A stretch of 64,000 nt of DNA from Escherichia phage sutha: the sequence record PV245934.1. One strand, given 5' to 3'. The stretch's first letter is position 1; every line of letters begins with the position of its first letter. A model generated the notes under the pieces. That model was not told where the DNA came from. It did no database searches and saw only the letters and a list, made by a program, of their open reading frames with translations. Position numbers and translations under genes: made by a program. Shown here in pieces: positions 11,512-62,216 of the stretch.

Positions 11512-13020
11512 ATGGATATTAAAGTACATTTTCACGACTTCAGTCATGTACGCATCGATTGTGAAGAGAGCACGTTCCACGAATTAAGAGATTTCTTTTC
11601 GTTTGAGGCCGATGGATATAGGTTTAATCCTCGCTTCAGATATGGCAACTGGGATGGACGAATCCGTCTTTTAGATTATAATCGTCTTCTTCCGTTTGGT
11701 TTAGTCGGGCAAATTAAAAAGTTCTGTGATAACTTTGGCTATAAAGCCTGGATTGACCCACAAATTAACGAAAAAGAAGAATTATCAAGAAAAGATTTTG
11801 ATGAATGGCTTTCTAAATTAGAAATCTATTCAGGAAATAAAAGAATTGAACCACATTGGTATCAAAAAGATGCAGTGTTCGAAGGATTAGTTAATCGTCG
11901 TAGAATTCTTAATCTTCCAACATCTGCAGGTAAATCTTTAATTCAAGCTTTGCTTGCACGTTATTATTTGGAAAATTATGAAGGTAAAATTCTTATCATT
12001 GTTCCAACAACTGCTCTGACAACTCAGATGGCTGATGACTTTGTTGACTATCGTTTATTCAGTCATGCAATGATAAAGAAAATCGGTGGTGGAGCATCAA
12101 AAGATGATAAATATAAAAATGATGCGCCAGTCGTTGTTGGTACATGGCAAACTGTAGTAAAACAGCCGAAAGAATGGTTCTCACAGTTTGGAATGATGAT
12201 GAATGATGAATGCCATCTTGCTACAGGAAAAAGTATTTCATCTATCATATCAGGTTTAAATAACTGTATGTTTAAATTTGGTTTGTCCGGTTCATTACGC
12301 GATGGCAAAGCCAATATCATGCAGTATGTTGGAATGTTCGGTGAAATATTTAAGCCAGTAACGACTTCTAAATTAATGGAAGATGGGCAAGTAACTGAGT
12401 TAAAAATTAATAGTATTTTTCTTCGCTATCCCGATGAGTTCACTACTAAATTAAAGGGAAAAACTTACCAAGAAGAAATAAAAATTATTACTGGGCTCAG
12501 TAAAAGAAATAAATGGATCGCTAAATTAGCTATTAAACTTGCACAAAAAGATGAAAACGCTTTTGTCATGTTTAAACACGTATCGCACGGTAAAGCTATT
12601 TTCGATTTAATTAAAAATGAATACGATAAAGTTTATTACGTATCAGGGGAAGTTGATACCGAAACACGCAACGTAATGAAAACCCTAGCTGAAAACGGTA
12701 AAGGAATAATTATAGTAGCTAGTTATGGTGTATTTTCTACTGGTATTTCAGTTAAAAATCTGCATCACGTTATTTTAGCACACGGTGTTAAATCTAAAAT
12801 TATTGTATTGCAAACAATAGGTCGCGTATTACGTAAGCATGGTTCTAAAACAATCGCAACGGTCTGGGACCTCATTGATGATTGCGGTGTTAAGCCAAAA
12901 TCTGCTAATACGAAAAAGAAATACGTTCATTTGAATTATCTTTTAAAACACGGCATTGATCGTATTCAGCGATACGCAGATGAAAAATTTAATTACGTAA
13001 TGAAAACAGTTAATTTATAA
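11512..13020 (+). CDS. uvsW: UvsW RNA-DNA and DNA-DNA helicase
   Basis: 502 aa; SF2 helicase motifs (Walker A PTSAGKS, DECH box MMMNDECH); T4 UvsW size. Confidence 0.93.
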   Translation: MDIKVHFHDFSHVRIDCEESTFHELRDFFSFEADGYRFNPRFRYGNWDGRIRLLDYNRLLPFGLVGQIKKFCDNFGYKAWIDPQINEKEELSRKDFDEWLSKLEIYSGNKRIEPHWYQKDAVFEGLVNRRRILNLPTSAGKSLIQALLARYYLENYEGKILIIVPTTALTTQMADDFVDYRLFSHAMIKKIGGGASKDDKYKNDAPVVVGTWQTVVKQPKEWFSQFGMMMNDECHLATGKSISSIISGLNNCMFKFGLSGSLRDGKANIMQYVGMFGEIFKPVTTSKLMEDGQVTELKINSIFLRYPDEFTTKLKGKTYQEEIKIITGLSKRNKWIAKLAIKLAQKDENAFVMFKHVSHGKAIFDLIKNEYDKVYYVSGEVDTETRNVMKTLAENGKGIIIVASYGVFSTGISVKNLHHVILAHGVKSKIIVLQTIGRVLRKHGSKTIATVWDLIDDCGVKPKSANTKKKYVHLNYLLKHGIDRIQRYADEKFNYVMKTVNL

Positions 13021-13033
13021 GGGCTTCGGCCCT

Positions 13034-13276
13034 TTGGAGAAAAAGATGTTACTAGAATTTAAACAATTTCTTTATGAAGCTTCTATTGATGAATTTATGG
13101 GTAAAATTGCCTCTTGTCAAACATTAGAAGGTCTAGAAGAACTTGAAGCTTATTACAAGAAAAGAGTTAAAGAAACTGAATTAAAAGATACTGATGACAT
13201 CTCTGTGAGAGATGCTTTGGCAGGAAAAAGAGCTGAATTAGAAGATTCAGACGATGAAGTAGAAGAAAGCTTTTAA
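13034..13276 (+). CDS. UvsW.1 small acidic protein
   Basis: 80 aa ORF directly after uvsW, as T4 uvsW.1. Confidence 0.75.
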   Translation: MEKKMLLEFKQFLYEASIDEFMGKIASCQTLEGLEELEAYYKKRVKETELKDTDDISVRDALAGKRAELEDSDDEVEESF

Positions 13277-13330
13277 ATTAAAAAGGCCCAACCAAAAAGG
13301 AAGGGCCAAAACTATAGACTAAAGGTCACA

Positions 13331-13498
13331 CTATAGCAAAAGTTGTGTTTCATTTAATTGTTCTTCCGAACTTTCTGAAACTGGTAGTTCTTTAATGTAA
13401 TTATAACAAGGCCCAGGATGTACAGGACCTTTGTCTGTTTCAACAACCAATGCAGAATCGATTGGAGTTTTACAGACAACACAAATCTTATCTGACAT
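13331..13498 (-). CDS. small Cys-containing protein (uvsY.-2 position)
   Basis: 55 aa ORF found by hand (MSDKICVVCKTPIDS...), below the 60-aa track cutoff. Confidence 0.5.
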   Translation of the reverse strand: MSDKICVVCKTPIDSALVVETDKGPVHPGPCYNYIKELPVSESSEEQLNETQLLL

Positions 13499-13526
13499 GA
13501 TTGTCTCCTCTAAATTATATATCTAT

Positions 13527-13751
13527 TTATATAACTCTCATATGCATATCAATGCCCATATCTTTAGAATAAAAATATTCATCAAGATATCCGGCAAATT
13601 TTCCTTTAACATAAAGTACATCTTCACCGCATGGATGGTCAGCCAGGATACGAATATCCTGACGCTTGAGATTATACTTTTTCATTAAGAATTGAATTTC
13701 CGTTTCAAATTCTTCTTCATAATTAAAAGCATCATCAATGCTATATCTCAT
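13527..13751 (-). CDS. hypothetical protein (uvsY.-1 position)
   Basis: 74 aa, start overlaps uvsY stop (ATGA). Confidence 0.65.
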   Translation of the reverse strand: MRYSIDDAFNYEEEFETEIQFLMKKYNLKRQDIRILADHPCGEDVLYVKGKFAGYLDEYFYSKDMGIDMHMRVI

Positions 13752-14164
13752 TATTTTCCAGCCTCAAATGCTCGCATGTCTTGAATATGCTTAATAGCAA
13801 ATCCGCGTGATTTAATAGCATCAAGAGCTCCGCTACAGAAATCTAATAAAATTCCCCAATATTGTAATGAAGTATCAACTTTTAAAACATCCTTATCAGC
13901 TGATAGAACTGTCTTCATTTCTGATTTCTCATAACGGTCCATACTAAATTCATCACCATCTCCTCGTCCCGAGTAGTAGTCTAATTTAGCTTTAAGAGCA
14001 ACTTTTTTCTGCGCTTCAATTCTAAGCATTTCCTTTTTAATACTTGAATGCTTATTAAGCCATTTACTATATAACATTACGTTATTAGCTGCTTCATACT
14101 GTAATTTAGTCGAATCTATAAACACATCTTTCTTCAATTCTTCTTGAAGATCTTCTAATCTCAT
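13751..14164 (-). CDS. uvsY: UvsY recombination mediator protein
   Basis: 137 aa; MRLEDLQEELKKDVFIDSTKLQYEAANNVMLYSKWLNKH matches T4 UvsY by recall. Confidence 0.95.
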   Translation of the reverse strand: MRLEDLQEELKKDVFIDSTKLQYEAANNVMLYSKWLNKHSSIKKEMLRIEAQKKVALKAKLDYYSGRGDGDEFSMDRYEKSEMKTVLSADKDVLKVDTSLQYWGILLDFCSGALDAIKSRGFAIKHIQDMRAFEAGK

Positions 14165-14204
14165 ATTGTTCTCTATTCAATTGTTATTGGATGGACTTAG
14201 ATTC

Positions 14205-14232
14205 ATTATACCACGTTTATACGTGAAGCATT
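14205..14232 (-). promoter_or_regulatory. MotA-dependent middle promoter of uvsY (MotA box AATGCTTCA + TATAAT), coincident with T4 ori(uvsY)
   Basis: On minus strand AATGCTTCA, 13-bp spacer, TATAAT, ~40 bp upstream of uvsY ATG. Confidence 0.6.
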
Positions 14233-14629
14233 ATACTCTGTTACTGGAAGCTAGTTGTAGTTTTATCTGCTCAATATCATCAGGGTTATCGATGACCGAA
14301 AAGCGTATTTCTACTATCAGAGTATAATCATCATAAACTGGTATTACATTAACTGCTAATTTATCAATACGTGGCTCGTAGTTTCTTACTGCGCTTTCAA
14401 TGTTACGCTCAACAGTATCAGCAGTAAGAGGAGTCATATTCTCAAAAAGCTGATCAGATAAATCACATCCAAATTCCGGGTCAAATGGTCTCGACCCTTT
14501 TCTGGTTGTAATAATTCCCAAAAGGCTATTTTTAATTGACCTTAATCCAAGAGATCTAGAAACATCTTTGTCCCAATCCATTTTCATTTCTGGGTCAATG
14601 TCAGAATAAAGCTTATTAATATTTGCCAT
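14231..14629 (-). CDS. 25: baseplate wedge protein gp25
   Basis: 132 aa; [28 protein letters not shown] matches T4 gp25 by recall. Confidence 0.93.
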   Translation of the reverse strand: MANINKLYSDIDPEMKMDWDKDVSRSLGLRSIKNSLLGIITTRKGSRPFDPEFGCDLSDQLFENMTPLTADTVERNIESAVRNYEPRIDKLAVNVIPVYDDYTLIVEIRFSVIDNPDDIEQIKLQLASSNRV

Positions 14630-15255
14630 TACAATAGCTCAAAGAATTCTTTGAGTCCTCTTATTACATGAGCGTGAGATTTTCCACACTCTGGACATTT
14701 AATTGGAACAGCCAAATAAACAGTAGGCTTTAAAAGCATATCTTTTATAGCTACAATATCTGACTCTGTGATGATAGAATATAAATCTTCCAACTCTTTT
14801 TCATTCAAGTCTTCAATTGGAATGCTTTCACCGTTAGCATGAATCGTTTCTATACATGATACTATCATGTGGGCTATATTTTTATCATCAAAAATTTTAG
14901 GGTAATGGAACTTAATTTTAATGTCACCCAGTGTATACCAGAGGTCTTCTGGTGCATCTATTTGTGTATGTAATAGATTTATATGGGTTGGTATTTCAGT
15001 TCCGCAGGTGCACTTCCAGGAGTTTTCGTGATTAACTTCTCCAAGAGAATGCGCCCATAAATGAATCAACAGTAGTTCTGATTCTTGGCGGTTTAAATCT
15101 TTTGCATTTGTGCATTCTTTGATTAGCTTTTTAACGTTCTCTTCTACTGAACCGTTCTTTTTAGCAGTAATAAGTTCTAGATATTCTTTAAGAGTAAATG
15201 CGCGACAGTTGATTATTTTAGAACCAACTCTCACATCAAATTTGTATTCATACAT
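14629..15255 (-). CDS. 26: baseplate hub protein gp26
   Basis: 208 aa, overlaps gene 25 start; T4 gp26 size and position. Confidence 0.88.
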
Positions 15256-15276
15256 ATTTAGCTCCTTTATTTATCA

Positions 15277-15288
15277 TATTTATAAATA
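15277..15288. promoter_or_regulatory. divergent overlapping late promoters (TATAAATA on both strands) for genes 26 and 51
   Basis: Plus TATAAATA at 15281-15288 and minus-strand TATAAATA (plus tatttata) at 15277-15284 in the 50-bp divergent intergenic region. Confidence 0.6.
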
Positions 15289-15305
15289 GAATAAAAGGAG
15301 CATCT

Positions 15306-16055
15306 ATGGCAAACATTATTCGTTGTAAATTACCAGATGGTGTTCATCGTTTTAAACCATTTACGGTAGAAGATTATCGAGATTTTTTGTTAGTTCGAAA
15401 CGATATAGAACATCGGTCACCACAAGAACAAAAAGAAATAATTGCTGATTTAATTGCTGATTATTTTGGAGACTATCCGAAGACTTGGCAACCATTTATA
15501 TTTTTGCAGGTATTTGTAGGGTCAATAGGTAAAACTAAAGTACCGGTTACATTTGTATGTCCAAAATGTAAAAAAGAAAAGACAGTTCCATTTGAAATAT
15601 ATCAAAAAGAATTAAAGGAACCTGTTTTTGATGTAGCTAATGTTAAAATTAAATTAAAGTTTCCTTCTGAGTTTTATGAAAATAAAGCAAAGATGATTAC
15701 TGAAAATATTCATTCCGTTCAAGTAGATGAAATGTGGTATGATTGGAATGAAATTAGCGAATCAAGTCAAATAGAACTTGTTGATGCCATCGAGATAGAA
15801 ACATTAGAAAAAATTCTCGATGCAATGAATCCTATTAATTTAACGCTACACATGTCCTGTTGTGACAAGTATGTAAAAAAATACACTGATATAGTAGATG
15901 TATTTAAGCTATTAGTTAACCCAGATGAAATATTTACTTTTTATCAAATTAATCACACACTCGTAAAAAGTAATTATAGCTTAAATTCAATAATGAAAAT
16001 GATTCCTGCCGAGCGCGGATTCGTATTAAAACTGATTGAGAAGGATAAACAATAA
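15306..16055 (+). CDS. 51: baseplate hub assembly catalyst gp51
   Basis: 249 aa, T4 gp51 size and position. Confidence 0.88.
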
Positions 16056-49304: not shown

Positions 49305-52300
49305 ATGGCCGAGATTAAAAGAAAGTTCAGAGCAGAAGACGGTCTGGACGCAGGTGGCGATAAAATAATCAACGTAGCTTTAGCTGATCGTACCGTAGGA
49401 ACTGACGGTGTTAACGTTGATTACCTAATTCAAGAAAACACAGTTCAACAATACGATCCAACTCGTGGATATTTAAAAGATTTTGTAATCATTTATGATA
49501 ACCGCTTTTGGGCTGCTATAAATGATATTCCAAAACCGGCAGGAGCTTTTAATAGTGGACGCTGGAGAGCATTACGTACAGATGCTAACTGGATTACAGT
49601 CTCATCTGGTTCATATCAATTAAAATCTGGTGAAGCTATTTCGGTTAACACTGCAGCTGGTAATGATATTACATTTACTTTGCCATCTACCCCAATTGAT
49701 GGTGATACTATCGTTCTCCAAGACATTGGAGGAAAACCTGGGGTTAACCAAGTTTTAATTGCAGCTTCAGTACAAAGTATTGTAAACTTTAGAGGTGAAC
49801 AAGTACGTTCAGTACTAATGACTCATCCAAAGTCGCAGTTAGTTTTAATTTTTAGTAATCGTCTGTGGCAAATGTATGTAGCTGATTATAGTAGAGAAGC
49901 TGTAGTTGTAACACCAGCGAATACTTATCAAGCGCAATCCAACGATTTTATCGTACGTAGATTTACTTCTGCTGCACCAATTAATGTTAAACTTCCAAGA
50001 TTTGCTAATCATGGCGATATTATTAATTTCGTCGATTTAGATAAACTAAATCCGCTTTATCATACAATTGTTACTACATACGATGAAACGACTTCAATAC
50101 AAGAAGTTGGAACTCATTCCATTGAAGGCCGTACAACGATTGACGGTTTCTTGATGTTTGATGATAATGAGAAATTGTGGAGATTGTTTGACGGGGATAG
50201 TAAAGCGCGTTTACGCATTATAACGACTAATTCTAATATTCGTCCAAATGAAGAAGTTATGGTATTTGGTGCGAATAACGGAACAGCTCAGACAATTGAA
50301 CTTCAGCTTCCGACTGATATTTCTGTTGGTGATACTGTCAAAATTTCCATGAATTACATGCGAAAAGGACAAACAGTTAAAATCAAAGCTGCCGGTGAAG
50401 ATAAAATTGCTTCTTCAGTTCAATTGCTGCAATTCCCAAAACGTTCAGAATATCCGCCTGAAGCTGAATGGGTAACTGTTCAAGAATTAGTTTTTAACGG
50501 TGAAACTAATTATGTTCCAGTTTTACAACTTGCTTATATAGAAGATTCTGACGGAAAATACTGGGTTGTACAACAAAACGTTCCAACCGTAGAAAGAGTT
50601 GATTCTTTGAATGATTCTACTAGAGCAAGATTAGGCGTGATTGCTTTAGCTACACAAGCGCAAGCTAATGTCGATTTAGAAAATTCTCCACAAAAAGAAT
50701 TAGCAATTACTCCAGAAACATTAGCTAACCGTACTGCTACAGAAACTCGTAGAGGTATCGCAAGAATAGCAACTACTGCTCAAGTGAATCAGAACACTAC
50801 ATTCTCTTTTGCTGACGATATTATCATCACTCCTAAAAAGCTGAATGAAAGAACTGCTACAGAAACTCGCAGAGGTGTTGCTGAAATTGCGACACAGCAA
50901 GAAACTAATGCAGGTACTGATGATACTACAATCATCACTCCTAAAAAGCTTCAAGCTCGTCAAGGTTCTGAATCATTATCTGGTATCGTAACCTTTGTAT
51001 CTACCGCAGGAGCTACTCCAGCTTCTAGCCGTGAATTAAATGGTACAAATGTTTACAATAAAAACACTAATAATTTAGTCGTTTCGCCTAAAGCTCTGGA
51101 TCAGTATAAAGCTACTCCAACACAGCAAGGTGCAGTAATTTTAGCAGTTGAAAGTGAAGTAATTGCTGGACAAAGCCAAGAAGGATGGGCAAATGCGGTT
51201 GTAACACCAGAAACGTTACATAAAAAGACATCAACTGATGGAAGAATTGGTTTAATTGAAATTGCTACGCAAAGTGAAGTTAATACAGGAACTGATTATA
51301 CTCGTGCAGTCACTCCTAAAACTTTAAATGACCGTATAGCAACTGAAAGTTTAAGTGGTATAGCTGAAATTGCTGCACAAGTTGAATTCGACGCAGGCGT
51401 CGACGATACTCGTATCTCTACACCATTAAAAATTAAAACTAGATTTAATAGTACTGATCGTACTTCTGTTGTTGCTCTATCTGGATTAGTTGAATCAGGA
51501 ACTCTCTGGGACCATTATACCCTTAATATTCTTGAAGCAAATGAGACACAGCGTGGTACACTTCGTGTGGCTACACAAGTTGAAGCTGCTGCAGGAACAT
51601 TAGATAATGTTTTAATAACTCCTAAAAAGCTTTTAGGTACTAAATCTACTGAAGCACAGGAAGGTGTTATTAAAGTTGCAACTCAGTCTGAAACTGTGAC
51701 TGGAACGTCAGCAAATACTGCTGTATCTCCAAAAAATTTAAAATGGATTGTGCAGAGTGAACCTACTTGGGCAGCTACTACTGCGATAAGAGGCTTTGTT
51801 AAAACTTCATCTGGTTCAATTACATTCGTTGGTAATGATACAGTTGGTTCAACGCAGTCGTTAGAATTATACGAGAAAAATAGCTATGCAGTATCACCGT
51901 ATGAATTAAACCGTGTATTAGCAAATTATTTGCCATTAAAAGCAAAAGCTGCTGACGCAAATTTATTAGATGGCCTAGATTCATCTCAGTTCATTCGTAG
52001 GGACATTGCACAGACGGTTAATGGTTCACTAACCTTAACCCAACAAACGAATCTGAGTGCCCCTCTTGTATCATCTAGTACTGCTACGTTTGGTGGTTCA
52101 GTTTCGGTAAATAGTACATTAACTATTTCTAATACTGGAACGGCAACTCGTCTGATTTTTGAAAAAGGACCTCAAACTGGAACTAACCCAGCACAGACAA
52201 TGAGCATCCGTGTATGGGGTAACCAGTATGGTGGCGGTTCAGATACAACACGTTCTACCGTATTTGAAGTTGGTGATGAAACGTCTAATCACTTTTATTC

Positions 52301-59489: not shown

Positions 59490-59762
59490 TTATTTGTTCG
59501 TATACATCTCTAGATATCGATATACACCCTCAAAACCCTCGTTGAATTCGTCGATGAGGGTTTTCTTATCTTCTTGAGTTAATTCAGAAACAATTTTACG
59601 GAATGAATTCTGATTCAACTTTCTACCTTCATGCGTTACTCCAATCTCATTCAGAAATGCAATAAAATTAGCGCGATTCTCAACAATATCTTCTCGGGAA
59701 AATTTAATCAAAATAGACGCAACAGTAATAATTTCACGAACTGTATCAATATTTTTATTCAT
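59490..59762 (-). CDS. asiA: anti-sigma-70 factor AsiA
   Basis: 90 aa; MNKNIDTVREIITVASILIKFSREDIVENRANFIAFLNEIG... matches T4 AsiA by recall. Confidence 0.93.
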   Translation of the reverse strand: MNKNIDTVREIITVASILIKFSREDIVENRANFIAFLNEIGVTHEGRKLNQNSFRKIVSELTQEDKKTLIDEFNEGFEGVYRYLEMYTNK

Positions 59763-61580: not shown

Positions 61581-62216
61581 TCACAGTTCAGATGCTACAG
61601 TGATTACAGCTTCAATGTTTTCTGCCGAGCGTTTAATGTCAAGATACACATTACCGTTTTTAGCGATTTTACATGACATTCCGATATCAGTAAATTTCTG
61701 AATATGATGTTCCATCATTTTGTATCCAAAAATTCGCATATTTCCATTGTTGTTAATTTCAAAATTACGAATTCCGTGAGTGCGTTTTTCTAAAATAGCG
61801 AGATAGTTACTGCGATAAGTTTCAACCTTTTTAAGAACAAATCCATTTTCATCTAAAAGTTTTAACATGAAGTCTTTATCTTCTTCCATATCAGAAGTAA
61901 TCTCACGAGCTTTACGAGTTGCTCGTTTTTTCAGCAGTTCAGGAGCATTTTCCTGTGCGTATAAAGTTGCTGCATTTGAAATAATATCCTGAGCTTCACC
62001 AGTAATGATTAATCCATCACCAGATTTCTCCACCAGGCCTTTTTTAATCAATACCCCAATATTACTATTAACTACTGCGTTACCTAAATCTGGATGCACC
62101 TCACGAACTTCTGCAGCTGTAATGAAATCTTTCTTAGCAATAGTAATTAAAATCGCAGCAGTTTTTTCATTCAGAACACCGTTAGAAGCTTTGATGATGT
62201 AAGTTACTTTAGACAT
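61581..62216 (-). CDS. motA: middle-mode transcription activator MotA
   Basis: 211 aa; MSKVTYIIKASNGVLNEKTAAILITIAKKDFITAAEVREVHPDLGNAV... matches T4 MotA by recall. Confidence 0.95.
   Translation of the reverse strand: MSKVTYIIKASNGVLNEKTAAILITIAKKDFITAAEVREVHPDLGNAVVNSNIGVLIKKGLVEKSGDGLIITGEAQDIISNAATLYAQENAPELLKKRATRKAREITSDMEEDKDFMLKLLDENGFVLKKVETYRSNYLAILEKRTHGIRNFEINNNGNMRIFGYKMMEHHIQKFTDIGMSCKIAKNGNVYLDIKRSAENIEAVITVASEL

Follow-up and report, generated by a model that had tools for sequence, protein, structure and literature searches.

In Escherichia phage sutha, a close relative of T4, the minus-strand site upstream of uvsY is, as judged by alignment, the orthologue of the T4 middle promoter PuvsY and of its origin oriF, i.e. 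a feature that is already known. We consider that it is a MotA/AsiA-dependent middle promoter of uvsY that very probably (with a probability of about 0.8) also serves as an R-loop replication origin like T4 oriF, and we infer origin function in this phage by homology with T4. All positions refer to the window, i.e. the whole stretch of 64,000 nucleotides from sequence record PV245934.1 that was analysed.

T4 middle promoters obey a defined rule: a MotA box, (a/t)(a/t)(a/t)TGCTTtA, lies 12±1 bp from a -10 element, and a good -10 is strictly needed (PMC2988021). Direct reading and pattern searches place the putative MotA box TAATGCTTCA at 14233..14224 on the minus strand, approximately from -35 to -26. 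This 10-nt box, of which AATGCTTCA (14232..14224, minus strand) is part, fits the form (a/t)(a/t)(a/t)TGCTT(t/c)A centred near -30 in T4 MotA-dependent middle promoters. It is followed by a 13-nt spacer, CGTATAAACGTGG (14223..14211, minus strand), and by a perfect sigma-70 type -10 hexamer TATAAT (14210..14205, minus strand), identified by direct reading, by alignment with T4 and by a strict pattern search. An earlier note on this DNA had described a MotA box, a 13-bp spacer and TATAAT upstream of uvsY, and had named a spacing outside the functional range as a point against its reading. Direct reading of the minus strand finds all three elements where the note had put them, and a distance of 13 bp lies within the 12±1 bp of the rule (PMC2988021). 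The frame of gene 25 on the minus strand terminates ...AGA GTA TAA, and its stop codon TAA (14233..14231) is formed by the first three bases of TAATGCTTCA. Between TATAAT and the ATG of uvsY (14164) there are 40 nt, GAATCTAAGTCCATCCAATAACAATTGAATAGAGAACAAT. The predicted transcription start is A14198 (minus strand), 7 nt past the -10. The resulting uvsY 5' leader (14165..14197, minus strand) is 34 nt long including the start base, contains a single copy of the 10-bp unit CCAATAACAA and is presumed to be the first portion of the downstream unwinding element. A sigma-70 promoter and terminator scan at the site returned neither a -35/-10 promoter nor a terminator between gene 25 and uvsY. The site very likely functions as a promoter, its MotA motifs being read from the DNA itself and their activity at uvsY being extrapolated from T4.

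Other promoter-like sequences are found close by. The motif GTATAATG occurs twice on the minus strand, at 14229-14236 and 14204-14211, 25 bp apart, and the same is true in T4. Its upstream copy lies across both the stop codon of gene 25 and the MotA box, so that a second perfect TATAAT (14235..14230) is present within the promoter. The nearest GCTT box upstream of this second hexamer is 10 bp off, outside the 11-13 bp range. Inside uvsY, an AATGCTT at 14024-14030 (minus strand) corresponds to the second 'mot box' of T4 record M77695 (2036-2042). Since TAnnnT is absent 11-13 bp downstream of it, a middle promoter at this place seems unlikely.

Correspondence with T4 is almost base for base. Positions 13700-14700 of the window show 98-99% identity to hundreds of Tequatrovirus genomes, and the site is alignable with T4 115290-115410, the intergenic part differing by one 10-bp indel and two substitutions. 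The alignment reveals no difference from T4 in the MotA box, in the -10, in the start-site region or in the first 90 nt of uvsY. The T4 annotations fall at homologous positions. Indeed, a 'mot box' and the uvsY -10 are annotated at the homologous place in M77695, the original uvsY record, and the rep_origin entered at 115321 in AF158101 and NC_000866 is described as 'oriF (oriuvsY); (-) strand direction; primer RNA is same as transcript for gene uvsY'. In T4, the PuvsY start has been mapped at 115371 (PMC2988021 Table 1), and PuvsY and P34i are named as the promoters driving two T4 origins (PMC2988021). Carried through the alignment, the mapped start corresponds to A14198 and the origin point to 14158. 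In addition, a T4-type middle promoter is annotated at this site in the GenBank record of the relative SA21RB. The comparison with T4 ori(uvsY) that the earlier note had proposed thus bears out its identification of the site as the uvsY middle promoter and counterpart of the T4 origin. The two sites also share their position between gene 25 and uvsY, their orientation, the proximity of uvsW, the 13-bp spacing and an equal computed instability of the downstream duplex. They differ in the spacer, where two adjacent substitutions give ATAA in the window and TAAA in T4, and in the leader, which is 34 nt long in the window and 44 nt in T4 because CCAATAACAA is single in the former and a tandem double in the latter.

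Promoter architecture is conserved well beyond Tequatrovirus. We compared loci upstream of uvsY (L009, L010, L014-L016 and L018-L020) together with L017 and L021. Upstream of uvsY, a GCTT-core box located 12-13 bp from a perfect TATAAT followed by GG is present in nine genus-level lineages (Tequatrovirus, Mosigvirus, Gelderlandvirus, two further IMG/VR lineages, a Klebsiella phage group, Winklervirus, Marfavirus and Dhakavirus). The TATAAT -10 is invariant in these nine lineages, and the surrounding intergenic sequence is divergent. Downstream duplex instability is unevenly kept and is average in Mosigvirus (54-58th percentile). This pattern is a firm argument for the promoter and a weak one for an origin outside the T4 genus. 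No MotA box was found upstream of uvsY in Krischvirus (RB49 type) or KVP40. At the same place, Krischvirus displays a TGnTATGAT without a MotA box, and KVP40 has neither. Across genera, the segment from the -10 into the first transcribed bases (TATAATGG, then a T-rich run, then TAG/TCC) is better kept than the remaining intergenic spacer.

The gene neighbourhood is that of T4 oriF, and the trans factors on which this class of promoter relies are encoded in the window. The promoter's gene, uvsY (13751..14164, minus strand; 137 aa; Pfam UvsY, E = 9.8e-53), overlaps the putative origin with its 5' end. It belongs to a minus-strand group that runs from gp26 (14629-15255, identified as an ORF) through gp25 (14231-14629, identified by Pfam) to the ORFs uvsY.-1 and uvsY.-2. 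This group is convergent with the plus-strand genes uvsW and uvsW.1. The uvsW helicase gene (11512..13020, plus strand) is recognised by Pfam UvsW_N and helicase domains, and its product unwinds the R-loops at origins late in T4 infection (PMC3016281). Both activators are encoded within the 64 kb: motA at 61581..62216 (minus strand; Pfam MotA_activ and MotCF, E = 5e-60 and 9e-67), the activator required by this promoter class, and asiA at 59490..59762 (minus strand; Pfam AsiA, E = 1e-42), the middle-promoter co-activator. As a side observation, uvsW encodes 502 aa and is followed by a separate 80-aa ORF, uvsW.1 (11512-13276 for the two, plus strand). Relatives likewise annotate two genes, and T4 record AF158101.6 has one longer uvsW (112677-114440) with a note on sequence discrepancies.

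In T4, an R-loop origin consists of a promoter and an A+T-rich DNA unwinding element (DUE), ~100 bp in all, and the RNA made from the promoter persists in the DUE as an R-loop (PMC3016281). The hybrid RNA primes the leading strand, probably after cutting by the phage RNase H, and the displaced strand opens access for the gp41/61 primosome, gp59 greatly speeding the loading of the gp41 helicase (PMC3016281). Origins are silenced late in infection by promoter shut-off and by R-loop unwinding by UvsW (PMC3016281). The statement in the earlier note that the T4 uvsY promoter doubles as an origin through a persistent R-loop agrees with this published account and with the oriF annotation. In the phage studied here, the proposed course of events would be similar. 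Minutes after infection, MotA would bind TAATGCTTCA and the AsiA-remodelled sigma-70 polymerase would use TATAAT, with transcription probably proceeding from near A14198 toward lower coordinates. Part of the transcript may then remain hybridised to the template in an easily melted 50-100 bp, i.e. the leader and the first uvsY codons, giving a persistent R-loop. The RNA, probably trimmed by the phage RNase H, would prime a leading strand in the direction of uvsY transcription, and gp59 would load the gp41/61 primosome on the displaced strand. Late silencing would come about when middle promoters are turned off and the R-loops are undone by UvsW, the gene of which is 1.1 kb away.

We looked at the DNA into which this transcript would run, using for the T4 minimal origin and DUE the limits given in the 2010 reviews. 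The presumed unwinding element and R-loop zone extends over ~14100..14197 on the minus strand, with approximate limits, and includes 14158, the equivalent of the T4 oriF point. Calculated with nearest-neighbour parameters, which disregard the glucosyl-hydroxymethylcytosine of T4 and T-even DNA, the 100 bp past the start have a duplex stability of -114.6 kcal/mol versus -116.2 kcal/mol in the T4 equivalent, i.e. a slightly weaker duplex. Among all 100-bp windows in the 64 kb, these 100 bp are in the weakest 3-5%, and the corresponding figure for 60 bp is the weakest 3-12%. The A+T content is 70-71% (71% for the downstream 100 bp), compared with a window average of 64%, and purines make up 63-65% of the transcript. 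As a thermodynamic proxy for hybrid persistence, we took the difference in stability between RNA:DNA and DNA:DNA pairing, which lies at the unremarkable 14th-30th percentile. The first 100 nt of the transcript fold into no more structure than shuffled sequence (z = -0.45), and a structured leader RNA is therefore unsupported. GC skew at a 2-kb scale tracks gene orientation, and an origin-specific switch was not seen at the site. As in a T4 R-loop origin, a promoter is thus followed by an A+T-rich element, the signal of which is moderate. The sequence is compatible with an unwinding element and would not stand out by composition alone.

These results refine two claims of the earlier note. It had pointed to an A/T-rich stretch before the ATG and suggested a prediction of unwinding elements. 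The stretch is indeed A+T-rich (70% versus 64%) and the downstream 100 bp match T4, but the enrichment is not striking. It had also placed the feature at 14165-14232. The lower limit of this interval falls short: since the DUE in T4 runs into the uvsY coding sequence, the functional unit would extend from ~14233 down to ~14100-14130, past 14165 and into the start of uvsY. The presumed element further contains an imperfect 20-nt direct repeat (80% identity, spacing 43), with one copy, CAATAACAATTGAATAGAGA, in the leader (14170-14189) and the other, CAAGAAGAATTGAAGAAAGA, in the first uvsY codons (14127-14146), both in the minus-strand reading and both present in T4. This repeat may be due to chance in purine-rich sequence.

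The sole serious rival to a promoter that doubles as an origin is a promoter without an origin: the site would be the uvsY middle promoter alone, with origin activity absent or negligible here, e.g. if the shorter leader or the altered spacer did not support a persistent R-loop. Its appeal lies in the one-copy leader, 10 bp shorter than that of T4, which is the only allele ever tested, and in unwinding and hybrid-stability signals that are moderate. In addition, other genera keep the promoter while downstream stability is average in some of them, as in Mosigvirus, which suggests selection on the promoter rather than on the unwinding element. Because multiple origins are active early in T4 infection (PMC3016281), selection to retain origin activity may indeed be weak. 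However, the T4 DUE is non-specific in sequence, and heterologous unwinding elements can take its place (PMC3016281). In the window, the first 100 bp past the start are at least as unstable as those of T4, and the minimal origin otherwise has the T4 sequence. We accordingly regard a promoter without origin activity as unlikely, albeit far from negligible.

Two further readings dispute the promoter itself, and we consider both much less probable. According to one, which is highly improbable, the elements are a chance look-alike in an A+T-rich intergenic spacer, and uvsY is expressed solely via late-promoter read-through from upstream of gene 26. Consistent with this, the window shows no enrichment of the loose pattern TGCTTNA-N11-13-TANNNT (9 matches versus 5.05 expected; 8 of 100 shuffles reach 9), and a late promoter consensus, TATAAATA, is present on the same strand upstream of gene 26 (15284..15277). 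Yet the stricter TGCTTYA-N11-13-TATAAT, adopted after the loose pattern gave no enrichment, has two matches in 64 kb versus 0.07 expected, a number reached in only 1 of 100 shuffles. These matches are the uvsY site and 51514-51539 (minus strand), the P34i homologue, i.e. the counterparts of the two T4 origin promoters. Moreover, the site is orthologous to a T4 start that has been mapped experimentally, and its box, spacing and -10 are kept in nine lineages despite divergent flanking intergenic sequence. A chance match is ruled out by this orthology and conservation. The other reading, the least probable of all, starts from an inverted repeat, CACGT-ATAA-ACGTG (14225..14212, minus strand; 5-bp arms), which fills the promoter spacer, most of the repeat being within it. 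The repeat would then be the functional element, for instance by forming a stem-loop at the 3' end of the late mRNA of gene 25, and would overlap the promoter only incidentally. T4 has the same CACGT/ACGTG stem, intact in both phages, and the two substitutions are confined to the loop (TAAA in T4). Nevertheless, the stem has 5 pairs only, is not followed by a T-run, went unreported by the terminator scan and is absent from other genera that retain the promoter. Rfam gave zero matches in 13000-15500, which also counts against a hairpin.

Late-promoter motifs were seen at several places around the site. The consensus TATAAATA is found on both strands of the divergent gap between gp26 and gp51 (15277-15288) and on the minus strand upstream of uvsY.-2 (13524-13531), which suggests that uvsY could also be reached by late read-through transcripts. 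The spacer of the window reads TATAAAC, a 6/8 match to this motif, and T4 has no such match here.

Returning to the promoter that probably doubles as an origin, we examined how its leader and spacer vary among relatives. The unit CCAATAACAA occurs once in the window (14175-14184, minus strand) and twice in T4 (2345-2364 of locus L001). With a junction-specific query, the doubled unit was found in 16 records, all of them T4, T4T, RB55 or RB59, whereas the single unit is present in 477 phage records of Tequatrovirus, T2 among them. As shown by these counts, the window bears the common allele, and the T4 laboratory reference the unusual one. The two spacer alleles, ATAA and TAAA, are both found among close relatives. 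The new point, although a small one, is that the T4 reference allele has a lineage-restricted 10-bp duplication in its unwinding element. It is conceivable, at rather long odds, that T4 oriF, studied for decades, is in this respect an atypical allele with consequences, the 34-nt-leader allele being that of nearly all natural Tequatroviruses. Should the duplication alter how long the R-loop persists or how well uvsY is translated, oriF in wild T4-like phages could differ in strength from the textbook case. The one-copy and two-copy leaders are natural variants for asking how leader length affects R-loop origin firing.

The second match of the strict pattern, TGCTTCA-13 bp-TATAATGG (51514-51539, minus strand), is located within gene 34 and closely matches T4 P34i, the promoter of the second R-loop origin of T4. 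This origin, ori(34) or oriG, is annotated as a rep_origin at 152947. As judged by sequence, the window thus contains homologues of both characterised T4 R-loop origins. In practice, it can be annotated with a uvsY middle promoter, an oriF homologue and also an oriG homologue; beyond annotation, the uvsY site has little significance. Like the uvsY site, T4 oriG combines a MotA-dependent middle promoter with an unwinding element and acts via an R-loop (PMC3016281). In contrast to it, oriG lies antisense inside gene 34, so that its transcript is not an mRNA for an adjacent gene, and it is without sequence similarity to the uvsY site beyond the promoter elements. A looser analogy, drawn from PMC3016281, is with ColE1-type plasmid origins and E. 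coli oriK, which differ in promoter type, host factors and sequence. There too, a transcript in a persistent RNA-DNA hybrid is the leading-strand primer, the relation being one of mechanism and not of homology.
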